Program-made: the position numbers and the translations under genes
The notes under the pieces: model-generated
Told to the model about the DNA's origin: nothing
Seen by the model: only the letters and a program-made list of their open reading frames with translations
Databases searched by the model: none
From: a virus
Lineage: Duplodnaviria > Caudoviricetes
Length of the DNA: 26,069 bases
Direction: 5' to 3' (one strand)
IMG/VR virus record: IMGVR_UViG_3300011416_000292
Location: 1 to 26,069 of that record
Shown: in pieces, positions 2,930-14,260 of the stretch
How the letters are laid out: each line of letters opens with the position of its first letter
How positions within the stretch are numbered: position 1 is the first letter of the stretch

Positions 2930-5900
2930 TCAACGATTGAATGCTTTAATTAACTTGTCGTAGATAATCTCTTCCTCTTCCTCGATGTCCTTTACCCGGT
3001 TCCGCTTCTCGGCGAAGGGCATGTCCGACAGCCTGATGGCATCCACGGCATCCCGTTTGGCCTTGGCCAGCTTCATCTGCCGGTCGGCCAGGTTCGCCAC
3101 GGATATCAGGTCGGCGTTGTCTTCCTTCAACTGGTTGGCGACCTCCGGGTTCTTGTCCTTCTTGGCGGACTTCCACTCTTCCGCTGCAGTCTTGGCGTCC
3201 CCAGCGATCTGGTAGAACAGCTGCCGGGTGTCCTTGACGTTGTTCTCCTTGCCCAAGACCGAGACCATCGGGATCTCCCCGACCTCGGGACCACTGCCGC
3301 CATCCACCATGCCGAGACCGACCTGGGCCAGACCGACTGACTGGTCAATGAACGTGAAGGCACCACCTAATATCGACCGGGTGTAGAACTTCAGCACCTC
3401 GGGGGATACATCGACTGCACCGGAGGAATACTTCGTTCCACCGGATATATCATTCAGGGCAGCCGAAGTCTTCTCGTACAGAGTTCCCTTGGTGGCCCGG
3501 TACATGTTCTGGGAATCAGGCTTCGACTCACTGTATTTTGTCGGCGCGATGGGTGATCCAAAGCTCCCCAGATTCGTGGCCGGTGCCAGTAGGAGTTTCG
3601 GGACTGTTGGTAACATGGCGACCGTGCTTTTCCAGTTGAGACCTTCATGGGTGACCGGATTTCCCAGCGGTGAGAGGCCGTCCATGATGGCACTGGCCAG
3701 GTTCATGGCAGTCTTTTTGTCAGCCTTTCCGTGGGCAAGGTCGTTGATGGCATATCCGATCCCCACGAAGGATCCGTACTCATAAGGAAGGGGGATGGTC
3801 AGGAATGACTTCTCGCCGGTCCTGATGACAAGGTTGCGGTTCTTGGTGGACCGGCCGACCTTTTCCCATTCGTCGTCATCATCGCCACCGATCCCCCGGG
3901 AGAGTTCGGCAGCCATGTACCCCACCATGGCCATGGCGCCGACCAGTGCCTGCGCCTGGTGCTTGTGCTTGGACTCCGTGAGGGCGAAGATACTGCGCTG
4001 GATACCTTGGACAGCCGGGTTGAAAAATAGCCACAGGGCTCCCATCTGGGGGCCGAGTTCGCCCTTCTTGTCGAAGTTGATGGTTGAGTTCTTGGCGGCC
4101 TCTCCTGCTTCGGCCTCTGACTTCCCTTCTTCCACCAGGGTGATGAACGTGGCCACCCGGAATGCATTCTCTGAGATGGAGTTCATGGCTTCGATCATCT
4201 TGAGGAAGTGACCCAGGATAGGTATCTTCTCGAATCCGGCCACACCCGATTTCGCCAGGGCCTTCGTTCGGGCATACATCGGGCTCCGACCTTCTGCGAT
4301 CTGCTCGTCATAAACTTGACGGTAGGTGGCGATGGCCCCGATGTGTTCATGGTACATGGACTCAACATCATCGCCCAGCCGCTCAAGGGAGGACAGATAG
4401 GATGCCCCGGTGGACCCGCCCTGCTTGCGGTAACGGTCGATCCACTGACTCTTGCTCGGATCCTTGCGACCCTTCCAGAACTCCTTGACCGCCTTGGGGT
4501 AGTTGGCTGCAATCTTGGCTGCCGTGGCCACCCCGTAGTCCCCTGTCAGGTTGACCATGCCAGAGGTGAAGTCCCGGATGGTGTTCCTGATGGTGAACCG
4601 CGGGTCGTATCCGGTGTAGGCCCGGGAGAAATAGTTGTTGATCGTCTTCCCGATTGTCAGCAGAGTTCCGAGCCCTTCCGCCCCCATGTTGGTCAGGGCG
4701 TCGGCAGAGATCTGGTCGTTGATCTGGATGCGGACCTGGTGCCCTTTGACAAAGGCATTGACCTCGTTCTTGCCCAGCATCGGGCTGACCATCATCTTGA
4801 CTGTCGGGTCGGTTGAGATGTCCACCACGTAATCATCGATCGGAGTGTGATATTGCGCCCGGTGAGCAGCGACGAAATCATCAGCCTCTTTCTCTGTACC
4901 GAAGGCACCGATCACCGTACCCTTGAATTCAGCCGTGTAGACCTTCTGGTTCTTGAAGACCCTGCGGAGTTCCGGCTTACCTACTGTTCCGATGGCTGGG
5001 TCGTTGGCCTCGACCAGCAGGGAAATAATTTGGAGATTAACTTTATTTTTTTCTATTGTCTTGATGGCCGATTCACGGGCCTTGATGATGTTCTCCAAGA
5101 CATGTTCCTCGCGGAGTTCATGCCCTGCCCTGCGCTTGAGGTTGCGATTGACGACCTGACCCTTGCCTGCCCCGGGCTTCGTGTCTCCCTCACCACCACG
5201 CAGCGGGACGTAATGAGTATATGCACCCTGCCAGGCGTCTCGCATTTCCTGAGAGATGATGCCTGCCTTGAGCAGCATGTCCGCCGACTCATCCGAGAAT
5301 GCCCTGAAACGGTTGGCGATGCTCTCCAGCTTGGCGAAGTCTGCCCGGGCCTTGTAGACCTTCAGTGCGTCTGCAGCTTCCTTGTCGGTGACACCGAATG
5401 CTGTAGCAGTGGGGTCCTTGTGCAGTTCTCGCATCGCCTGATTCGCTTCAGCGGCGTGTTGCATCAGCAGGAAGTCGCTGATGTCGTCCAGTTTGATCTT
5501 CTCCTTGGCGGCCTCTTTGATGAGGGGGCCAACCTGAAGGTCCATGAAGCGCGATAACTGGTCAGCGGTCTTGCCAGCTTGAACTGCGAGACCCCTTGAT
5601 ACGTCCGCTTGTTCGGAGAGGACAACCCCGTTGTCTTCCAAGTACTCCTGCAGCACATCCAATCTGTTGAACTTATTTTGGAACTTACGTTTCAACAGTT
5701 GATATGGAGTTTCCACCGGAAGATTATTTTGTCTTACCGAATACTTTGGTGAATCGCCTTGACTAGTTGTCCCATCTAGTATACCATTGGATATCTTTTC
5801 TATGGAGGTAAGCATATGCCGAATGTCATCTGTGCCTTTTGCGGAACCACTACCCACAAACTGCCGTACCAGATCAGGCAGAGTAAGTCCGGTAGATTCT

Positions 5901-8900
5901 ACTGCTCTTACGAATGCAGTCAATCTGACCATCGTAGTGTATGGGTCGACTCCGAGGGATATCAGAGATCCAAGGTTGCTGGACGGTCCCCTCTCATCCA
6001 TCGTCAACTTATGGAGAAGCATCTCGGGCGCAGACTGTTGTCCAGTGAAGTCGTCCACCATATTAACGAAGACAAGACGGACAACAGGATTGAGAATCTT
6101 GCTATCCATAGCAGATCTGGCCACATGTTCGAGCACAATCCCTTGAGTTTTGATATCAAGGCCGCTGAAACCATGCTCAAGGAAGGACTTTCTGTGAACG
6201 ATGTCGCTGAAAAACTTGGTGTCACTCGCGGCATCTTGAGTGGTGCTTTTATCCGTAGAGGCACGACCACCAACGCGGTCAGAGGACTCCCCCCTCAAGT
6301 TGAGAGAAGACCTTTGCAACTCCCTGAGATAGTCGAGTGCATCAAGAAAAGCTGGTCCCTGGATCAAATGGCTGACTTTTTTAAATGCAGTACGAGTTTC
6401 ATCAGGGACACCATCAGGAGTAATGGCACCTCTCTGAGAAAGATCAGGGTGTCTCTCGGTCTCCCCGCTGGCATCACGCCCAATCGGATTTACTGATTCA
6501 CGTTTCTGTTTTACCGAGAACATCGGGTAGGATGCAGGAGTCTTGTCTGTGATGGGGATGTAGGGGACAAGGATAAGCGTGGACTGAGTGCCTGGGTTGA
6601 TAATATCGTAAAAGCCAGTTTCTCTATTCTGCCTTACCTGTAAATCTTCTGTGGCATGGTTTCTTTTAAGGAATATTTCAGCGGCCTCTCTACTGGTGAA
6701 ACCACGCTCTACTACAGGGCGGGCGTTCTTTTCGCCGATGCTTGTTTTACCTACCCCCTCTTTCCCATACTTCTTGAACAGGGCAGGGAGAGTACGATCA
6801 TAGAGAGCCTTCAGTCCAGCCCCCCCAATCGACAAATCCAATCCCGAGAGAATCTTTTCTGACTCATGGTATTTTTGCTTTACAGAGTCTTTAGACTGAT
6901 TTAGAATATCAGCATGAATATTCAAAAGTTTTGCGAGTTCTGTGGTGTTGAGATTTTTCACAAGTGGCCTTCCCATCTTGCTAGGAAGAGGTTCTGCTCC
7001 AGAACGTGCAGGTCTAGTTTTCTGTGGGATACCGTCAGTGCCAAGATGGAAGATGCGTCCAGGGCTTACAATGCCGACAATTTCTCTCGCGCTGAGATCA
7101 CTTGTCCGCAATGCGGGAAGAAGCGCTACGTCTCCCCTGCCATCCTCAAGGCTGGTGCTAAGTTTTGCTCCAAGGCTTGCTCCGACATCGCGCATCGCGT
7201 TGACAACCCCAACCGCCACAGGACTACGTTCATTGATGGCAAGCTCACCAAAGACCATATCCTTATTGTGGAAAAGGCTATCGGCAGAAAGATGGTTCGC
7301 GGAGAGGATATTCATCACATCAACGGGCAAAAGCGAGATAACAGCCTGCTTAACCTGATCGTGTTGAAGCATGGACAACACACTTCCGTCCACTGTATCC
7401 AAAGGCATCAGAAACGCCATCTTAGTGCCGTAGACATTATCAGCCAGTTCCCCGATGCCTTGTGGCTTGGTAGCCTCGTCCCATAGTGGGTTGCTCGAGG
7501 CCCCTTCCCCATCGCTTATTTTCTTAGCTATTTCTTTGCCAAGATATTCCTCTATGGTTTTATCGGTTGCCCTAGATTCAGTCCAAAGACTATGCCCATC
7601 TTTTTCTGCCGAGACCTTGTATGTGCCATCTTCGTTCGGCTGATAAGCGATTTCATCTACCTGCTTGCTCAAATCATACCTTGCCGCCTGCATGGCACCG
7701 GTCGTGAAACTCACCCCGTCAAATCCGTTCTCCTTGGCATAGGCCAGTACACGCTTGACGCCGATATCGTAGATGCGCTTGACCAGATATGAGGGCATTT
7801 TCTTCTGGTTGGCAAATGACGGACCCTGCATCTCTTCGACAAAAAGAATTTTGCCCTGCTCGGTCTCGCGCTCGTTGAAGCGGATTCTTACTATCGGATT
7901 CGTGATCGATTCGTATTGCGAGTGGCCGTCTTGCCATTTACCAGCCTCTCCTGCTACCCGTTTCTTATAGTTTGGGTGCTCTTTTAAATCACTTCTTGCC
8001 TCTTCCTCTGTAGGCCATCTTCCCATTCGTTCGCCATCAAGAAACGCATCAACTCCATTTTTTGCAGGAGTTGTCGTTATGACTGATGCAGAGGATAAAC
8101 CGAGTCCCGGTGCTGTTACAAACATCTCCCTGTACGATCCTGCTGCTGCACCAGGTTCTGTGTATTGGGAGAAGTGGGTGACATCTTCTCGAAAGTCGCC
8201 AACTTCTTCTTGGTATCTTGCGTGTGCTTCGCTTTGTTCGGCTGGCGATAACTCTGAATAAGGGGTTTCTTCGTTCGCTCCCCCTTCGTCATTCCACCAT
8301 GCCTCAACATCACCCATATCAGGTTCGCCCAGCACCACATCCTCAAGCTCAACAGAATTGGCCTGAATCGCTTCCAGTACTTCCGCCTTGGTCACCGCCT
8401 TGCCTTCGTCGAACTCTCCCAGCACGGTGCCGATTTCGTCCTCTGTGACTCCATTGTTGCGTAACATGGAACGGAGTTGTGGAACGAACATGCGACCTGA
8501 CATCTTCTGCTCGACCACTTCCGCCAGTTTCGACCGGAAGGGCTGCAGTCTTTCCCTTGCTTCCTTGAGAGAGTACCGGATGTCAGGGTTGGTGGGGTCA
8601 AAGGAACCGCGATTTCCGATTGCGGATTTTATCTGGGTAGGGGAATAAACAATGTAGGCTTTCCGGCCATCTGCCCTCACTATTTTCCCATCATAACCTC
8701 GGGACAGTGATTCTTCTGCTATCGTGATTCCTTTTGCTATTGCTGACTTCTTGATATCTCCTGCCACTCTATCAGGAACTGGGTTTTCAATCTTAATGTA
8801 GACGGGCATAATGTTACCGCCCCGCCCTGTTTTGTTTGCATATTCCGCCGCATATTTGGTTGACTCTGTGAACATGAAGGCGCCCACAAAACCACCCGTG

Positions 8901-11900
8901 CGGGATGTCGTGTGTTCATCGGAAAACGCATCAAAATCAGCAGGAGTCCCATGATAAACGACCAACGGATTCCCATCCTCATCCACCACACGGCTATTTT
9001 TAAACCATGCTTTGAACTCAGGTGTCTCTGTCTGCTTGGTGGAGAACAGAGGACCGTTTTCGATTCCTGTCTTGATGGTAGTTACTGCAGCGGGATTGTA
9101 AATCACCACACCGCCGAACGACCTGTCGAAGAGCCCGTCTACTCCCGCTTTTTTCATGATGATTGGGAGTGAGTCGCTGGATAAGAGATTCCCTTTTTTC
9201 GACAGGACATCCCACCTCATGGAATCCACTTCATCCCTGAGGTCAAGTATTTTTGCAGTGTCTTTGATTTTGATGGCGATTACGGACCCGCCACTCTCAT
9301 CTCCTGACATGTCAGCGTAATTACTCTTTGCCAGACCGTAGTCCGATGCCAGATAGAGACCCTTCCCGAAATATCCAGCAGTGGTTTTGTTGAGGTCTAT
9401 CTTCTTGTGGATGGACTCAGCCGAAGATTTCTCGGTGCCATGGAACATAACCCTTCCTGCCCATCCCTTGACTGGGACGTCTTCGGGGTCGATTGAATAC
9501 TTGGAAACCAGGTCGTCCGCGCCAAGGTTTTCTGTCTGCTGTGCAACAGGAGTGACTGGGCCGGCGAACCCTATAAACTCCTTGGAGAGTCTGATGGCAT
9601 CTTCGGCACTAACCTGAGACGCAGACAAGTTGTTACCTGATTTGCCTTCTGCCCTCCAGACACCGAATTCTTTGTACGTTCTCCAGCCGTTCGACCAGAC
9701 GGTCTCTTCATCTCTCAGTCGCTTCCCCTTCACCGAGAACTGCACATCATCCAGCACCGGCTTCATCGGATTGCCTTGGTCTGACTCTTTGTCCATATTC
9801 TCATAAAGGAATGGATCGATGATTTTCTTGACTGCTTCCAGATCAGGGAACAGGTCGGTGACGTCCAGCCCGTTGCGCTTGCCTGTGTCCAGCAGCCTGT
9901 CGATGGCATCGGCGATGGCCCTGAACAACTTGGGTGCCACCTTGGACAACCCGCGCCAGAACTCCTTGTCGTGCCACCGTGTAGCAGTGAGGTCGGCGAT
10001 GATTTCCCGGTTGACCTCATCGGTTGAAAGGTCGCGTTTGCGGTTGGTCTCCAGCCATTCATGGTAGGTCGCCCGGGCCTCGGGGTCAGCCAGAGCAATA
10101 ATCTTGTCCATGACTTCAGTGTACCCATCCGACCTCTCGAATGAATGGGTGATCTCATGGCCTACCACTACCAGCATGGGATGTGTGGTGTCTTGGGCAA
10201 GGAAGATATTCCCCCCCCAGTAGACTCCGTTGAAACGAGTGGATTGTTTTACGAAGATGGGTTTCTGGATGCCGAGAGCAGCGGATATCTTGAGGACATC
10301 CTTCTGCTCTGGCGTGAGGTCTGTTGCTACTTCAAGGGTTTCTCCGACTGCTCGGGAGAGCCCTGCGGCTTTTTGTTCTGCCAGGGCCGTGGGAAACGGT
10401 CCTTCATCTGGAAGTGTGGTGCTGTCCTGTCTCCCTGTGCGAACCGATGGTTGCACTCCGACATGTACTGGTACGCTTCGTCCGTTGTCATAACCACCCT
10501 CCTCAAGGATGACCTTCTGTGCAGCCGGTTCGATCTGGTCCCAGCGAACCTTGGGAGTCTTGGTAGAACCTGCCCTCTCCAGCAGGTCCTTTCTCTCAGA
10601 CCGTTTGAGGCCGTCCCACCAGCGAGTTACTTTTTGTTCTGTTCTACCCTCTTCTTGAACCTGTCCCTCATTGACTGCAGAAACAGTTTCCGATCCTTCG
10701 GCTGCAGTTTCTGGCTCACTCGTTCCAAACATTTCGTCAAAGAGTCTGAGAGCTTCATTGGCTTCCTCCGGTGTTAAATCCTGTTCGCTGAATGTATCGG
10801 CTTCATGGTCAACGGCCTGTAACGATTCCTCAACGTCTTCTTGCGAGAGTTCAGGGAATCTATCAAGTATTGCCTCAACATCATCAGGATGGATAACAGG
10901 GTTGCCACTGGCCTGCGCTCTGACCATATCGGCAAACGACTGTGTGTCTACTTCTCCATTCACATCAAGGGTGACATTCCATCCTTGGTCCCGCATGTCC
11001 CGCGCCATCAGGTCAAGGCCAATTCCATTCTTGCTCTTGATTCTCAGATACCGTGCGCTGCTGGTTTCCTTCGGGTCGATGAACTTTGCCAGTGATTCAG
11101 GAGTGATCCCCCCACCCTGCTTGATATCGCTGAACAGATTGCGCGGACCTTTGGGCTTGGCTACTTTTTCTTTTTGCGGCTGAGAAGTTCCTGTTCCTTT
11201 TTCTCCAACGCCGGTATTGTCACTGACGGTGGTTGGCCCTCCAGGTGCTCCATTCCTATTTCCTTCAGGAGCGACTTGTCCGACATGGTGAACCTCCTTG
11301 GCTGCTTCCTTCGCCTTCTTTACTCTCACGGACGCCAGTTCAATGGCGGTCTTGGCACTGTCCGCTTCACCGAATTCACTGACTCCGATATGGAGACCGG
11401 TCCCGGGTGCCTTCCCTTTCGGGTGGGCAAGATCAGACAAACCATTTTCCTTGGCGTAAGCCTGTATCTTACCGTGTACCACTTTCAGGGCTTTTGTCAA
11501 ATCTTCTTTTGAAACGCCCGGGGCGATGACGGCCAGCTCATCCCCACCCTTCCTGATGACCTGGGCCCCCTTGAACTGGCTGACCCCTTCTCTGAGAATA
11601 TCTGCCATGGCACGGAAGTGCGTGTTCGCTTCTTCCTCGCCTCCGGGGAGCTCATTCAATCCCCCGAGGTTATGGATGTCGGCGATGGCATAGGCCACCT
11701 TCGATCCCTGGTTATCGTGGAGATCCCATGCACGTTTGAGGGTGGGCCCATGGTGGCGCCGTTCGATCAACCCGGTCTCGGCATCGGGAGTGCGCTCGTG
11801 CTTCCGCCGATCTTCCCGAGTCTTCTCAACGGCCGGGTGTCCCGGTTCCAACCCCGTTTCGATCAGGTCCTGCGCTGCCTTGTCGGCGATGACATCTGCT

Positions 11901-14260
11901 TCGTGGGGGAAGGTTACCTCAGTTTGGTCCCGCACGTCGGACAGAGGCGTTTCCCCTTGCACACTTTTTTCTGGCACTGCGGACACTTCATTCGATTCTC
12001 CTTTTGCGACTGGTGTCTCAATTTGAGAAGTTTCCCCCGGCAGGGATGGGGAGGGGGCCACCCCTGCCGGAGTATTGGCTTGCTCTACAGGGGAGGGACC
12101 CGGAGCAGAACCAAGTTCAGTGAGTGCCTCGAGTGCAGCCCGATGCTCCTCAACCTTTGCCAGTGCGGAGTCTCTCGACGCACCTTTAAGCCTGTTTGCG
12201 GCGATGCCCCATGATTTCATGCCCTGCCCATGGATGGCGATCTGCTGCTGTTTCTCTGCCTGAACCTGCTCGGAACCTGGTGCCTGGTCCCATGCCGCTC
12301 GGAGACCTTCATGCCCTTCTGTCGCAAGTTGAGACTGGATTGTCTGGAAACCACGCTTGGCTGCCAGGTCCTGTGCGAAGGTCGCGTAATCCTGACCGGC
12401 CAGCTTTGCCGCTGCAGCCTGTTCGGCGATAGGCGCAGGGGTTGGTTGGGGGGTGAACTCCTCGGGGCTCACAGGGGCCTTCTCGTTCACTGAAGGAGAA
12501 ACCACACCTTGTGATGTCTCGGCGATGATCTGGTCGACAGTCTCTGCAGGGGCAGCAGGTTCTTCTGTGGTCGTGGCGCCACCCAGTTTACTAAGCAGGT
12601 CGGCCTGATGCTCGGGAGACCCTACCGTGCCATTAACAGTCTCGTTGGCGGCGGCGATCGCATCGTCGACAGAGACGCTTCCATTGCTGATACCGGTGTC
12701 GGGAACTTCGACCTTCGCCTCGGCCGGCGCATTGAACTGCTCCCACCCTTTATCGTTGGCGACCATGCCGACCGGTTCGCTTTCGAAACCCTTCCACCCT
12801 TCTCCAGTAGGTTCGACCGGAGCAGTGAATATATCAGCACTGTACGGCAGTGCAGAGTTCGAAGTGACTGCGTTGGTGATGTTGGTCCGGGCGGTCTGCT
12901 TCTCTTCTTCAGGAATAGCACTGGCGTCCACGACTGCCATCAGTTCGTTGGCTGCCGATACCCGAGACTTGGCTGCAGATATCTTTGCCTGCGCCAGGGT
13001 CTCCCCTTTGGCGGTGAATTCCGCTACCTTCTCTGGGGTCACCGGTGAGAACAGGTCTTCCTTCAGTCTGGTGGATTGTCTGGCCTGTGATATCTGCCCG
13101 GCTGTTTCGAAGCCACCGGTCACCGCGGCACCGGACACACCACCGACAATTCCTGCCTCAATCATGCGCTTATTGATGTACTCTTCGCGGGTCATCCCGA
13201 TGGGGAGTTTGACCATGCCAGTGTCGAGATCCTGCTCGGCCTGGAACTTCTCTGTCCCCACTTCCGACATGCCTTCGAAGGGGACATCAGCTGCAGCGTG
13301 AAGAGCGATCGCAGTGCCGCGCTTTGTGGCGGATTTGGATATGTCTTCGAAGAGTGCCTGCCCTGTGTTGGTCCCCGCCACCTTGGCGACGAAGTTCCTG
13401 ACCACACTGGCGGACCCGCCCATCGGAAGGAACTTGGCACCGAAGGCACCGGCCTTTATGATCGATGCCTGTGCGGAGTTGCCGGCCATTTCGAAGCCTG
13501 CCTCGTACACTCCGTACTTGGCAGCTGCGGCCTGCATCTCGTCCTCGCTCATCTCGATCTTGCCCTGCTCTTTTGCTTCCCGCAGGTCCTTCAGTCTCTG
13601 CAGGTATGAGTCCTGGTACATCAGGTAATTGGAGACGCTACCACCACCAGGGAGAAGATTGGGCACCATGTACATCATCGACCTGGGCAGGTTCTCAATC
13701 ACCTGACCTGTGATACCCATAGCGGAATCTTCTTCGAACTTTCCGCCGGTCACACCCTTGTCGACCGACCGCAGGGCCCCGCCTACCGTACCCCTCAGAC
13801 CACCAGACTGCTCGGCCACAATCTGCTCGGTTGGAGCGGTGCGCTGGATGTGAGTCTGGCCTTCTTCATCCGTCCAGGTCTCGGTGTCTGGCGTACCGAA
13901 AAGGCCCACGTCGCTGCGGTTGACATCGAGCGGATCACCTTCGATCAGGTTACCGATGCTGGATATGGCGGACGTGCCTGATTTATACAGACTCTTTCCG
14001 ACTTCTTTTGCGGTAGGAATGATGCCGTGAGGAACGAGATCAGTAGGAAAAAGTGGATCCGTACCGGTAGCGATTGCCTCGGTTACGTTGGCCGGCTGGG
14101 TGCGGTCGGCGTAGAGCTCACCATCATAGATGGAAGGCTTTACCTTGCCTTGGGTTGCGAAGTCGGTCTGGTCATCGAAGGTGATCTCGTCACTGTCAAG
14201 AAAAGTGCCGCCCTTCTTGGGGGTATCAAACTGGACCTCCGAAGCGTCAAAGAAAGTCAT
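2930..14260 (-). CDS. Large polyvalent (virion-ejected/internal core-type) protein, 3776 aa
   Basis: Continuous ORF with RBS AAGGGG, located after the ejection-type genes. Contains GGDEF, HExxH, two ART-like and LPD38-like segments. About 470 codons are antisense read-through of two HNH cassettes. Confidence 0.9.
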   Translation of the reverse strand: MTFFDASEVQFDTPKKGGTFLDSDEITFDDQTDFATQGKVKPSIYDGELYADRTQPANVTEAIATGTDPLFPTDLVPHGIIPTAKEVGKSLYKSGTSAISSIGNLIEGDPLDVNRSDVGLFGTPDTETWTDEEGQTHIQRTAPTEQIVAEQSGGLRGTVGGALRSVDKGVTGGKFEEDSAMGITGQVIENLPRSMMYMVPNLLPGGGSVSNYLMYQDSYLQRLKDLREAKEQGKIEMSEDEMQAAAAKYGVYEAGFEMAGNSAQASIIKAGAFGAKFLPMGGSASVVRNFVAKVAGTNTGQALFEDISKSATKRGTAIALHAAADVPFEGMSEVGTEKFQAEQDLDTGMVKLPIGMTREEYINKRMIEAGIVGGVSGAAVTGGFETAGQISQARQSTRLKEDLFSPVTPEKVAEFTAKGETLAQAKISAAKSRVSAANELMAVVDASAIPEEEKQTARTNITNAVTSNSALPYSADIFTAPVEPTGEGWKGFESEPVGMVANDKGWEQFNAPAEAKVEVPDTGISNGSVSVDDAIAAANETVNGTVGSPEHQADLLSKLGGATTTEEPAAPAETVDQIIAETSQGVVSPSVNEKAPVSPEEFTPQPTPAPIAEQAAAAKLAGQDYATFAQDLAAKRGFQTIQSQLATEGHEGLRAAWDQAPGSEQVQAEKQQQIAIHGQGMKSWGIAANRLKGASRDSALAKVEEHRAALEALTELGSAPGPSPVEQANTPAGVAPSPSLPGETSQIETPVAKGESNEVSAVPEKSVQGETPLSDVRDQTEVTFPHEADVIADKAAQDLIETGLEPGHPAVEKTREDRRKHERTPDAETGLIERRHHGPTLKRAWDLHDNQGSKVAYAIADIHNLGGLNELPGGEEEANTHFRAMADILREGVSQFKGAQVIRKGGDELAVIAPGVSKEDLTKALKVVHGKIQAYAKENGLSDLAHPKGKAPGTGLHIGVSEFGEADSAKTAIELASVRVKKAKEAAKEVHHVGQVAPEGNRNGAPGGPTTVSDNTGVGEKGTGTSQPQKEKVAKPKGPRNLFSDIKQGGGITPESLAKFIDPKETSSARYLRIKSKNGIGLDLMARDMRDQGWNVTLDVNGEVDTQSFADMVRAQASGNPVIHPDDVEAILDRFPELSQEDVEESLQAVDHEADTFSEQDLTPEEANEALRLFDEMFGTSEPETAAEGSETVSAVNEGQVQEEGRTEQKVTRWWDGLKRSERKDLLERAGSTKTPKVRWDQIEPAAQKVILEEGGYDNGRSVPVHVGVQPSVRTGRQDSTTLPDEGPFPTALAEQKAAGLSRAVGETLEVATDLTPEQKDVLKISAALGIQKPIFVKQSTRFNGVYWGGNIFLAQDTTHPMLVVVGHEITHSFERSDGYTEVMDKIIALADPEARATYHEWLETNRKRDLSTDEVNREIIADLTATRWHDKEFWRGLSKVAPKLFRAIADAIDRLLDTGKRNGLDVTDLFPDLEAVKKIIDPFLYENMDKESDQGNPMKPVLDDVQFSVKGKRLRDEETVWSNGWRTYKEFGVWRAEGKSGNNLSASQVSAEDAIRLSKEFIGFAGPVTPVAQQTENLGADDLVSKYSIDPEDVPVKGWAGRVMFHGTEKSSAESIHKKIDLNKTTAGYFGKGLYLASDYGLAKSNYADMSGDESGGSVIAIKIKDTAKILDLRDEVDSMRWDVLSKKGNLLSSDSLPIIMKKAGVDGLFDRSFGGVVIYNPAAVTTIKTGIENGPLFSTKQTETPEFKAWFKNSRVVDEDGNPLVVYHGTPADFDAFSDEHTTSRTGGFVGAFMFTESTKYAAEYANKTGRGGNIMPVYIKIENPVPDRVAGDIKKSAIAKGITIAEESLSRGYDGKIVRADGRKAYIVYSPTQIKSAIGNRGSFDPTNPDIRYSLKEARERLQPFRSKLAEVVEQKMSGRMFVPQLRSMLRNNGVTEDEIGTVLGEFDEGKAVTKAEVLEAIQANSVELEDVVLGEPDMGDVEAWWNDEGGANEETPYSELSPAEQSEAHARYQEEVGDFREDVTHFSQYTEPGAAAGSYREMFVTAPGLGLSSASVITTTPAKNGVDAFLDGERMGRWPTEEEARSDLKEHPNYKKRVAGEAGKWQDGHSQYESITNPIVRIRFNERETEQGKILFVEEMQGPSFANQKKMPSYLVKRIYDIGVKRVLAYAKENGFDGVSFTTGAMQAARYDLSKQVDEIAYQPNEDGTYKVSAEKDGHSLWTESRATDKTIEEYLGKEIAKKISDGEGASSNPLWDEATKPQGIGELADNVYGTKMAFLMPLDTVDGSVLSMLQHDQVKQAVISLLPVDVMNILSANHLSADSLFHNKDMVFGELAINERSPVAVGVVNAMRDVGASLGAKLSTSLEDGRGDVALLPALRTSDLSAREIVGIVSPGRIFHLGTDGIPQKTRPARSGAEPLPSKMGRPLVKNLNTTELAKLLNIHADILNQSKDSVKQKYHESEKILSGLDLSIGGAGLKALYDRTLPALFKKYGKEGVGKTSIGEKNARPVVERGFTSREAAEIFLKRNHATEDLQVRQNRETGFYDIINPGTQSTLILVPYIPITDKTPASYPMFSVKQKRESVNPIGRDASGETERHPDLSQRGAITPDGVPDETRTAFKKVSHLIQGPAFLDALDYLRELQRSSLNLRGESSDRVGGRASTDKSTTQDAASDTKFFSDIVHRKSFLEHGFSGLDIKTQGIVLEHVARSAMDSKILNPVVRLVFVNMVDDFTGQQSAPEMLLHKLTMDERGPSSNLGSLISLGVDPYTTMVRLTAFVRAVESTGLTLPDLVRQFVGSGSAKGTDDIRHMLTSIEKISNGILDGTTSQGDSPKYSVRQNNLPVETPYQLLKRKFQNKFNRLDVLQEYLEDNGVVLSEQADVSRGLAVQAGKTADQLSRFMDLQVGPLIKEAAKEKIKLDDISDFLLMQHAAEANQAMRELHKDPTATAFGVTDKEAADALKVYKARADFAKLESIANRFRAFSDESADMLLKAGIISQEMRDAWQGAYTHYVPLRGGEGDTKPGAGKGQVVNRNLKRRAGHELREEHVLENIIKARESAIKTIEKNKVNLQIISLLVEANDPAIGTVGKPELRRVFKNQKVYTAEFKGTVIGAFGTEKEADDFVAAHRAQYHTPIDDYVVDISTDPTVKMMVSPMLGKNEVNAFVKGHQVRIQINDQISADALTNMGAEGLGTLLTIGKTINNYFSRAYTGYDPRFTIRNTIRDFTSGMVNLTGDYGVATAAKIAANYPKAVKEFWKGRKDPSKSQWIDRYRKQGGSTGASYLSSLERLGDDVESMYHEHIGAIATYRQVYDEQIAEGRSPMYARTKALAKSGVAGFEKIPILGHFLKMIEAMNSISENAFRVATFITLVEEGKSEAEAGEAAKNSTINFDKKGELGPQMGALWLFFNPAVQGIQRSIFALTESKHKHQAQALVGAMAMVGYMAAELSRGIGGDDDDEWEKVGRSTKNRNLVIRTGEKSFLTIPLPYEYGSFVGIGYAINDLAHGKADKKTAMNLASAIMDGLSPLGNPVTHEGLNWKSTVAMLPTVPKLLLAPATNLGSFGSPIAPTKYSESKPDSQNMYRATKGTLYEKTSAALNDISGGTKYSSGAVDVSPEVLKFYTRSILGGAFTFIDQSVGLAQVGLGMVDGGSGPEVGEIPMVSVLGKENNVKDTRQLFYQIAGDAKTAAEEWKSAKKDKNPEVANQLKEDNADLISVANLADRQMKLAKAKRDAVDAIRLSDMPFAEKRNRVKDIEEEEEIIYDKLIKAFNR
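3360..3870 (-). other. LPD38-like domain of the polyvalent protein (approximate bounds)
   Basis: WEKVGRSTKNRNLVI...FLTIPLPYEYG...SPEVLKFYTRSILGG, preceded by AKNSTINFDKKG..LWLFFNPAVQG, the usual C-terminal arrangement of phage polyvalent proteins. Confidence 0.65.
5759..5809 (+). promoter_or_regulatory. sigma70-type promoter and Shine-Dalgarno for antisense HNH-1
   Basis: TTGACT (5759-5764), 17 nt, TACCAT (5782-5787). GGAGGT at 5804-5809, 6 nt before ATG 5816. Confidence 0.7.
5816..6496 (+). CDS. HNH homing-type endonuclease (Zn finger + HNH_3-like + two HTH-like repeats), nested antisense in the giant gene
   Basis: CAFC...YCSYEC; IHRQLMEKHLGRRLLSSEVVHHINEDKTDNRIENL..H...H; C-terminal EGLSVNDVAEKLGVT and SWSLDQMADFFKCS. 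Has its own promoter and SD. Confidence 0.9.
   Translation: MPNVICAFCGTTTHKLPYQIRQSKSGRFYCSYECSQSDHRSVWVDSEGYQRSKVAGRSPLIHRQLMEKHLGRRLLSSEVVHHINEDKTDNRIENLAIHSRSGHMFEHNPLSFDIKAAETMLKEGLSVNDVAEKLGVTRGILSGAFIRRGTTTNAVRGLPPQVERRPLQLPEIVECIKKSWSLDQMADFFKCSTSFIRDTIRSNGTSLRKIRVSLGLPAGITPNRIY
6879..6907 (+). promoter_or_regulatory. sigma70-type promoter for antisense HNH-2, predicted leaderless transcript
   Basis: TTTACA (6879-6884), 17 nt, TAGAAT (6902-6907). The ATG begins at 6914, the expected +1 position, and there is no SD. Confidence 0.7.
6914..7486 (+). CDS. HNH homing-type endonuclease (two Zn fingers + HNH_3-like), nested antisense in the giant gene
   Basis: CEFC...FCSRTC and CPQC...FCSKAC; HILIVEKAIGRKMVRGEDIHHINGQKRDNSLLNLIVL..GQHTSVH. 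Confidence 0.9.
   Translation: MNIQKFCEFCGVEIFHKWPSHLARKRFCSRTCRSSFLWDTVSAKMEDASRAYNADNFSRAEITCPQCGKKRYVSPAILKAGAKFCSKACSDIAHRVDNPNRHRTTFIDGKLTKDHILIVEKAIGRKMVRGEDIHHINGQKRDNSLLNLIVLKHGQHTSVHCIQRHQKRHLSAVDIISQFPDALWLGSLVP
8570..9030 (-). other. ADP-ribosyltransferase-like domain (ART-PolyVal type) of the giant protein
   Basis: TPEFKAWFKNSRVVDEDGNPLVVYHGT...FMFTES..YAAEYA...GGNIMPVYIKIENP...GYDG...YIVYSPTQIKSA. Confidence 0.75.
9080..9460 (-). other. Second ART-like domain of the giant protein
   Basis: VMFHGT...GYFGKGLYLASDYGLAKSNYA...GVDGL...VVIYNP (H-G-T / G-x-G-x-Y pattern). Confidence 0.7.
9890..10270 (-). other. Zincin-like metallopeptidase domain of the giant protein
   Basis: FNGVYWGGNIFL...VVGHEITH (HExxH, near 10146-10162) with downstream EIIAD. 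Confidence 0.65.
10327..10491 (-). CDS. Putative overprinted microprotein (54 aa), +1 frame of the giant gene
   Basis: AGGAGG-GTGGTT-ATG; MTTDEAYQYMSECNHRFAQGDRTAPHFQMKDRFPRPWQNKKPQGSPEQSEKPLK*. Confidence 0.5.
   Translation of the reverse strand: MTTDEAYQYMSECNHRFAQGDRTAPHFQMKDRFPRPWQNKKPQGSPEQSEKPLK
11161..11286 (-). CDS. Putative overprinted microprotein (41 aa), +1 frame, directly after the GGDEF domain
   Basis: AAGGAGGT-TCACC-ATG; MSDKSLLKEIGMEHLEGQPPSVTIPALEKKEQELLSRKKKK*. Confidence 0.55.
   Translation of the reverse strand: MSDKSLLKEIGMEHLEGQPPSVTIPALEKKEQELLSRKKKK
11310..11790 (-). other. GGDEF (diguanylate cyclase-like) domain of the giant protein
   Basis: DAETGL...AYAIADIHNLGGLNE..G.EEAN..FRAMADIL...VIRKGGDELAVI...LHIGVSEF; the GGDEL codons are at 11534-11548. 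Confidence 0.8.
11914..11991 (-). CDS. Overprinted 25-aa zinc-ribbon microprotein, +1 frame of the giant gene
   Basis: AAGGAG-AATCGA-ATG; MKCPQCQKKVCKGKRLCPTCGTKLR* (CPxC-x10-CPxCG). Confidence 0.7.
   Translation of the reverse strand: MKCPQCQKKVCKGKRLCPTCGTKLR

Follow-up and report, generated by a model that had tools for sequence, protein, structure and literature searches.

Can the linkers between the domains of a giant phage gene hold genes of their own? The question is raised by a 26,069-bp virus record of IMG/VR (IMGVR_UViG_3300011416_000292; Caudoviricetes), here called the window, by which we mean the whole stretch of DNA that was analyzed. One of its genes encodes a polyvalent protein of 3776 amino acids (aa), and three short open reading frames (ORF1, ORF2 and ORF3), each with a start codon preceded by a strong Shine–Dalgarno (SD) motif, lie wholly inside this gene, in its +1 frame. 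A preliminary description of the same DNA had presented them as a series, a hidden operon whose products might be cognate inhibitors or chaperones of the neighboring enzyme domains, or whole genes captured by the giant one. The features concerned are the following.

2930..14260, minus strand: giant host gene, from the ORF list and translation; 3776-aa polyvalent protein without cysteine
11998..12003, minus strand: SD of ORF1, AAGGAG, 6 nt before the ATG; host codons K-G-E
11914..11991 (stop included), minus strand, +1 frame: ORF1, 25 aa, MKCPQCQKKVCKGKRLCPTCGTKLR, zinc-ribbon-like
11300..11785, minus strand: GGDEF-like domain within the host protein (aa 826-987 by Pfam)
11292..11299, minus strand: SD of ORF2, AAGGAGGT, 5 nt before the ATG; host codons K-E-V
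11161..11286 (stop included), minus strand, +1 frame: ORF2, 41 aa, MSDKSLLKEIGMEHLEGQ..., helical, MSxExRLxRLGLxHL family
10498..10503, minus strand: SD-like motif of ORF3, AGGAGG, 6 nt before the ATG; host codons E-E-G
10327..10491, minus strand, +1 frame: ORF3, 54 aa, unsupported

ORF1 and ORF2 are very probably both real genes. Comparison across genomes shows that each, together with its start codon and SD motif, recurs at equivalent places in distantly related giant genes, and that protein-level conservation is carried by the nested frame and not by the host frame. ORF3 is likely a chance ORF, and the searches turned up no relative of the host stretch in which it lies. The idea of genes hidden in the giant gene, and of an SD-ATG-ORF arrangement conserved in homologs, thus stands for the first two and falls away for the third, which lacks a comparator. 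In the reading that we prefer, the +1 frame of the linkers holds two conserved small genes, ORF1 and ORF2, each translated from its own SD and ATG, the ORF2 product is a partner specific to the GGDEF module, and ORF3 arose by chance; for all these parts taken jointly, we consider the chances about even.

The three SD and ATG sites, with starts at 11991, 11286 and 10491, are present exactly as first described, all in the +1 frame (offsets of the ATGs in the gene 2269, 2974 and 3769, each 1 mod 3), and the sequence bears out the sizes of 25, 41 and 54 aa as well as the host residues at the sites (KGESNE, KEVHHV and EEGGYD), which place the ORFs inside linkers of the giant protein. The arrangement is of the embedded, Rz1-like kind, each ORF being contained in another gene and read in a different frame from an SD and start of its own, and SD strength equals or exceeds that of the window's ordinary genes. 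The last host residue over ORF1 is 782, and homology of the GGDEF module to its relatives begins at residue 783; ORF2 starts at residue 992, after the Pfam match, and takes up the space from the end of the module to the conserved host domain that follows near residue 1026. The GGDEF domain is indeed flanked by the two. ORF3 was said to precede a peptidase domain: it does lie ahead of an HExxH stretch (GHEITH), but no Pfam peptidase family matches the giant protein at E ≤ 0.01.

The number of such sites does not set them apart. Out-of-frame ATGs in the giant gene number 117 in the +1 frame and 12 in the +2 frame; because NAT-GNN codon pairs are common and ATGs therefore fall nearly always in +1, the shared frame of the three ORFs needs no explanation. 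SD hexamers followed by an ATG occur three times in the +1 frame, where synonymous shuffling predicts 1.44 (P = 0.16) and codon permutation 1.07 (P = 0.10); if an ORF of at least 25 aa is required, a criterion set post hoc, the expectations are 0.62 and 0.44 (P = 0.02 for both). The lengths are likewise ordinary, since among 61 ATG-initiated ORFs in this frame 29 reach at least 25 aa, 16 at least 41 aa and 11 at least 54 aa. Site frequency thus lies near the null expectation, and to speak of a series or a hidden operon overstates what is there; evidence for function has to come from relatives and not from the count. As a separate observation, SD-like hexamers are scarce in the giant gene as a whole (13 against 23.0 expected under synonymous shuffling, 98.5% of shuffles having at least 13), a shortage consistent with avoidance of internal ribosome-binding sites, against which retained strong sites stand out.

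No close relative of the window was met in blastn against phage records, nor of a 633-aa segment or of the giant homolog P0002 among viral contigs; among metagenome contigs the sole match was the window's own contig, and a search of sequencing runs for the region listed one DNA run, possibly that from which the record derives, and no RNA run. Distant giant proteins have only the GGDEF module in common with the host, from residue 783 to about residue 1003, and alignment of this module alone was used to fetch 22 viral loci (L003–L024) at 24-41% identity, with D79, N82, G85, G124, D125 and E126 (module numbering) invariant. The other domains of these relatives include InPase, Kinase-PolyVal, LPD1 and LPD5. 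When 422 alternative-frame ORFs from 26 host genes underwent unbiased clustering with phmmer (all-versus-all BLAST without composition correction being too noisy), the family of ORF2 formed the largest cluster and zinc ribbons of the ORF1 type the second. The third (L007, L022 and L027) may be a host domain, itself conserved, read out of frame. A further +1-frame ORF (…AQARLMAAAAHNP[KE]FAK…) is common to L015:1944-2123 and L019:2151-2294; these contigs are close kin, so that the sharing is uninformative, and a suspected likeness to DUF3008 found no Pfam match.

ORF2 provides the strongest evidence. A profile built from nine copies, with the consensus MSxExRLxRLGLxHLxDxPEEL and without a family name, detects a nested +1-frame ORF of 39-79 aa at the 3' end of the GGDEF module, both in the window and in 20 of the 22 relatives (E = 1.6e-23 to 3.2e-3). 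In L016 a diverged copy was recognized by eye, and at the module of L024 there is none, so that the ORF sits at the same spot in 22 of 23 GGDEF-module genes although their other domains differ. Position 1 of the profile is ATG in 19 of 21 copies, GTG in one and shifted by one codon in another, and the SD match upstream spans at least 5 nt in 14 of the 21 and 4 nt in the other seven. Across codons 1-16 of 20 sequences, mean pairwise identity reaches 58% when the nested frame is read, compared with 27% for that of the host and 30% for +2. At the three nested codon positions, nucleotide diversity is 0.475, 0.284 and 0.499, against 0.637, 0.703 and 0.594 at the same positions in the 48 nt upstream, where the host third position is the most variable; the least variable position switches from the host pattern to the nested pattern at the ATG. 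Among codon pairs that differ (22 sequences), the synonymous share is 42% for the nested frame, compared with 3.7% for that of the host and 11.7% for +2, and ahead of the ATG the +1 frame shows no conservation (10% identity). Read in the host frame, the overlap encodes a low-complexity, Gly/Ala-rich linker (G19/A15), with the SD written in a conserved host K-[KE]-[GE] and the ATG in a [NDHY]-[VE] pair. These patterns show purifying selection on the nested ORF2 frame across the relatives.

For ORF1 the evidence is thinner than for ORF2 and points in the same direction. The peptide, which starts MKCPQC, has the layout CPQC-x9-CPTC and can be aligned over its whole length to Pfam models of zinc ribbons (DZR, E = 1.2e-4, 22.5 bits against a cut-off of 27.3); it is the sole one of 36 same-strand off-frame ORFs to match below E = 0.005 and the only CxxC...CxxC pattern in the five alternative frames, with an expectation of 0.002 in the +1 frame under synonymous shuffling. 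The host valines lying over its four cysteines are all encoded by GTG, a codon used for 69 of the 260 valines gene-wide. Counterparts of 24-25 aa, SD-led and in the +1 frame, occur in L004, L021 and L099. Together with ORF1 they have two CxxC knuckles at ribbon spacing and share the layout M-x-CPxC, basic loop, CPxCG, short tail and stop, inside giant, cysteine-free host genes. In L004 the counterpart stands ahead of the InPase domain of a polyvalent protein. A pattern scan for zinc-ribbon micro-ORFs, covering 36 of 64 parts of the viral collection, returned 119 loci, with two hits nested in a frame of at least 300 codons: L056, which is the contig of L021, and L099, which was new. The host frame of the latter (L099:3-3677, reverse strand) has at least 1225 codons and no cysteine, no Pfam domain, no detectable similarity to the host of L004 and no GGDEF module within 2 kb downstream, and it may be another kind of giant delivered protein. 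Over the aligned ORF1 blocks, nested identity is 0.55 and 0.50 against a host identity of 0.28 in both, a signal weaker than that of ORF2 and drawn from four copies. Set beside cysteine-free giant proteins, the nested zinc ribbon carries four to five cysteines.

Nothing comparable was found for ORF3. Pfam and other family scans gave no match, phmmer of the 54-aa peptide against 1.84 billion representative proteins gave no hits, and neither a tblastn comparison of all loci with host aa 1030-1560 and 1-780 nor an alignment of the HExxH region against viral contigs returned anything. A homolog search with host aa 1040-1350 found one protein, covering just aa 1026-1168, and hence no comparator for ORF3. 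With ORF1 and ORF2 set aside, one SD and ATG site is left where 0.62 are expected. A fourth +1-frame ORF, absent from the first list, lies nearby in the window at 10627-10758 on the minus strand and encodes a 43-aa basic amphipathic peptide led by GGAGG, 6 nt and ATG; the minimum free energy (MFE) at its start, -4.1, makes it the least structured of the 117 +1-frame ATGs bar about 1%, no comparator was found in the relatives, and it has no Pfam match below E = 0.0087.

The family of ORF2 is also found outside the viral loci used to define it. It is nested again in L027 and L035 (Dokdonella soli JCM 15421), L035 having a 94-aa member inside a 2594-aa frame with a GGDEF module (E = 6.5e-66), and its profile matches 25 predicted proteins of 46-114 aa annotated as "hypothetical", all 14 of the 14 that were read beginning MSxExRL. 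In the bacterial loci L032, L033, L034, L036 and L037 the gene is free-standing, with no long frame overlapping it; these copies lie in small integrative elements, beside an integrase and either an AHH nuclease with Imm11 or a CdiI_3 protein. In the stretches L032:2171-3546, L037:1621-3174 and L033:573-6044 the free-standing member precedes genes for a replication initiator (RPA) and a ParA-like ATPase; in L032 the gene follows a CdiI_3-domain gene and its start overlaps the stop of that gene, and in L037 it follows an AHH nuclease and Imm11 pair. The earlier suggestion of whole genes captured by the giant gene fits these free-standing homologs of ORF2. The family is rare: it was absent from all 399 class-level bacterial genomes scored, the centre genome aside, and one more was unscorable.

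Searches with the family returned no match in Pfam, PHROGs, NCBIfam, PDB sequences or the Foldseek PDB set, and the best ESM Atlas score, 0.79, fell in unnamed clusters, with nothing usable. A suspected resemblance to the SAP, HeH and Rho-N helix-extension-helix motif likewise had no Pfam, NCBIfam, PDB or Foldseek match when 21 (Pfam), 11 (NCBIfam) and 13 (PDB) members were scanned together with the profile. AlphaFold2, given a 60-aa member and 52 sequences, predicts a helix at residues 3-9, a turn and a long helix at residues 19-54, with a mean predicted local distance difference test score (pLDDT) of 89; for the window's own copy the mean is 74.

Does the ORF2 product act on the domain that precedes it? 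ORF2 directly follows an enzymatic domain and travels with it, in the window, in 21 of the 22 loci and in L027 and L035, as small genes of the toxin–immunity type do. When residues 30-225 of the GGDEF module (an alignment of 24 rows) were modeled with the 41-aa protein (21 rows), the complex scored 0.79, and the best of three controls 0.00; in a benchmark, 116 of the 157 solved complexes reached that mark, as did 2 of the 215 pairs that were mismatched, a guide that is rough here because our own alignments were used. Runs agree in at least 96% of contacts, with a partner pLDDT of at least 84. The predicted interface on the module comprises residues 77, 79-80, 83, 123, 125-126 and 182-207 and so takes in D79, which is invariant, as well as D125/E126 in the GGDE motif, with the long ORF2 helix modeled along the C-terminal helix of the module (residues 182-207). 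On the side of the small protein, residues 2-10 and 20-40 are predicted to make the contact. The model fits the fixed position of the gene behind the GGDEF module where other domains differ. On this basis we lean, if only slightly, towards the view that the ORF2 product binds the module; that it would also inhibit or hold it is a more tentative proposal, which we would not yet bet on. The idea of a cognate inhibitor, as put forward in the preliminary description, is for ORF2 a plausible one, compatible with its fixed place and with a modeled contact that touches catalytic residues.

We infer the following course of events. Ribosomes would initiate internally on the giant mRNA at the starts of ORF1 and ORF2, so that the small proteins would be made in the cell that expresses the giant gene and would not be part of the delivered polypeptide. 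The ORF2 product, with its short helix, LGLxHL turn and long charged helix, would lie against the C-terminal helix of the GGDEF module and extend to the catalytic acidic residues; from this predicted docking we take ORF2 to be a partner specific to the module, most likely one that inhibits or holds it, which would travel with the module as one cassette, as an immunity gene does after a toxin domain. ORF1 would yield a minimal four-cysteine zinc-binding peptide. A bolder and rather unlikely version would have polyvalent genes carry, +1-overprinted on the linkers between domains, cognate antidotes to single enzyme modules; the GGDEF-like module and its nested helical protein of 40-80 aa would be one cassette that can be shuffled, the small protein plugging the catalytic face of the cyclase in the producer and staying behind at injection of the giant protein, so that the enzyme becomes armed only in the next host, with the 25-aa zinc ribbon as a second layer.

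Several observations weigh against the reading of ORF1 and ORF2 as linker genes with ORF2 as a module-specific partner. The raw count of SD and ATG sites is not beyond chance, and RNA structure at the nested starts (MFE of -7.9, -11.1 and -10.9 for the three ORFs) is just mildly weaker than the average of the 117 +1-frame ATGs (-13.3; 15 real starts, -9.6) and is not decisive. A CxxC..CxxC pattern is expected about 0.21 times per gene over five alternative frames, ORF1 rests on four instances, and all scores of its type in Pfam (15.8-24.3 bits) are under the gathering cut-offs of 25-27.3, the best, in L021, being 24.3 against 27. The window's ORF2 copy is without the near-invariant R6 and R9, and none of the collections searched holds a close relative for fine-scale tests. 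The complex is a model from shallow alignments of our own (24 and 21 rows) and shows neither binding nor inhibition. Finally, no polyvalent-type GGDEF lies within about 10 kb of the free-standing copies, and in two genomes with such copies the best GGDEF match (E = 6.7e-10) is at the ordinary cellular level, with none of the polyvalent type; an ORF2-family protein can hence work without that module.

This last point is also what gives weight to the main alternative, a quite possible one although not the one we would expect, in which ORF1 and ORF2 are real but ORF2 is an autonomous small factor, for instance a small nucleic-acid-binding or regulatory factor of mobile elements, whose place behind the GGDEF module is accidental: a free-standing gene after a GGDEF gene would have been swallowed by read-through fusion on loss of a stop codon, and module and linker then shuffled as a unit. 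The free-standing copies between integrase or toxin–immunity genes and the RPA and ParA-like gene, the lack of a polyvalent-type GGDEF near them or elsewhere in the two genomes, the basic C-terminal tails of many copies and a host reading over the overlap that resembles an off-frame G/A-rich linker all agree with such a history. It accounts less well for a complex model that passes three controls and lands on invariant catalytic residues, or for the retention of the ORF in the same place in 22 of 23 GGDEF-module genes with differing domains, and the family matches no known DNA-binding family.

That ORF1 or ORF2, or both, are fossils of captured genes, recognizable but no longer translated or useful, is improbable. 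Gene capture is plausible in view of the free-standing homologs, and ORF1 is found in four genes only; yet GGDEF modules just 24-41% identical keep the ORF2 start (ATG or GTG in 20 of 21), the SD and a frame of 39-79 aa, with 42% of differing nested codons synonymous, features that a decaying relic would not keep, and the ORF1 copies retain their four cysteines, start, stop and length in hosts without detectable mutual similarity. Still less credit can be given to the view that all three ORFs are chance products of Lys, Glu and Gly codons, which read as SD-like, followed by NAT-GNN pairs in linkers. The near-chance count of sites, the +1 bias that follows from codon structure, the ordinary lengths and the encoding of the SDs by host K-G-E, K-E-V and E-E-G are all as this view would have them, but it holds for ORF3 only, being excluded for ORF1 and ORF2 by nested-frame conservation across genomes and by free-standing homologs. 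Programmed frameshifting out of the giant frame, which would cut the giant proteins short and end them in a zinc-ribbon or helical tail in place of making separate small proteins, is the least credible of all. Frameshifting is used by phages elsewhere, and an A-rich run, AAAAAAG, lies inside ORF1; the conserved peptide nevertheless begins exactly at a conserved, SD-preceded ATG, free-standing genes begin at the same Met, no conserved slippery site was seen upstream, and the +1 frame before the ATG is unconserved. We rejected this reading on account of the conserved ATG and the free-standing starts.

The host gene itself belongs with the polyvalent proteins in the sense of PMC5512222, as it is virus-encoded and combines many unrelated domains, polyvalent-specific ones among them, with Pfam matches above cut-off to ART-PolyVal (aa 1760-1887, 105.9 bits), LPD38 (aa 3462-3665, 96.8 bits) and GGDEF (40.3 bits). 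A nearby gene matches the SU10 head-tail adaptor, which puts the giant gene beside virion genes, and the giant polypeptide is presumably packaged and delivered with the DNA, going by the description of the family (PMC5512222). Cysteine is absent from all 3776 residues, from six homologs of 2627-4972 aa (P0002–P0006 and P0032), in which an in-frame zinc ribbon was therefore sought in vain, and from the host frames of 16 of the 22 relative loci and of L099.

The antisense HNH genes reported inside the giant gene are there: two ORFs on the plus strand, 5816-6496 and 6914-7486, match Pfam HNH_3 with 37.0 and 29.0 bits against a cut-off of 24.8. Both are codon-aligned with the giant frame, which remains open across them; host aa about 2253-2471, an insertion relative to the homolog P0003, coincides with the second, and the G+C fraction falls to 0.47-0.50 in this region. 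They look like homing-endonuclease genes inserted antisense and read through in frame.

Among known systems, lambda Rz1 within Rz is the closest in layout, being likewise a small phage gene that is contained entirely in a larger one, read in the +1 frame and equipped with an SD and start of its own; genes of this type are similarly embedded in some genomes and separate in others, and are usually missed by gene callers. In a survey of o-spanins, 182 systems are embedded, 228 overlapped and 118 separated (PMC6139136). The window's ORFs differ in that no lysis protein is involved, ORF2 having no cysteine and ORF1 neither a signal peptide nor a hydrophobic leader, hence no lipobox; in that the host is an 11-kb polyvalent-protein gene whose inter-domain linkers they occupy; and in that the predicted binding site of ORF2 is the host enzyme domain ahead of it and not the host C-terminus across the periplasm. 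The same content of ART-PolyVal, LPD38 and GGDEF is known from polyvalent proteins, in which GGDEF domains were noted by Iyer et al. 2017 (PMC5512222); that paper describes no linker-embedded genes, uses "nested" only of a hairpin fold and mentions neither overlap nor frameshift. Literature searches on polyvalent proteins in connection with GGDEF or with nested, embedded or overlapping genes met with no description of such genes.

The toxin–immunity cassettes of polymorphic toxins offer a second likeness, since there too a small gene starts at the end of an enzymatic domain and moves between architectures, and ORF2 is predicted to bind the preceding domain over its active site. Unlike an immunity gene, ORF2 is overprinted on the host's own linker instead of following a stop codon, and its family matches no known immunity family; toxicity of the GGDEF-like module and its neutralization would be putative parallels. 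With the minimal zinc ribbons (Zn_ribbon_3, PF13248; DZR, PF12773; Zn_Ribbon_1, PF13240), ORF1 and its three counterparts share two CPxC knuckles, 9-10 residues apart, and an alignment over the whole of these 23-26-residue models; unlike them they score below the gathering cut-offs, are 24-25 aa long and are embedded in another gene.

Because gene callers drop ORFs that lie inside longer ones, such proteins would be missing from the annotations of giant phage genes, and the comparison of conservation in nested and host frames used here is applicable to other giant genes of mobile elements. If ORF2 does hold or inhibit the GGDEF module, this would explain how an 11-kb multi-enzyme delivery protein can be made without its enzymes acting in the producer, and ORF2 would be a small protein binder of a GGDEF-type nucleotide cyclase. 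The embedded ORF2 gene has been kept across at least 24 highly diverged polyvalent-protein genes, which suggests that what have been taken for "linkers" in these proteins are coding space.

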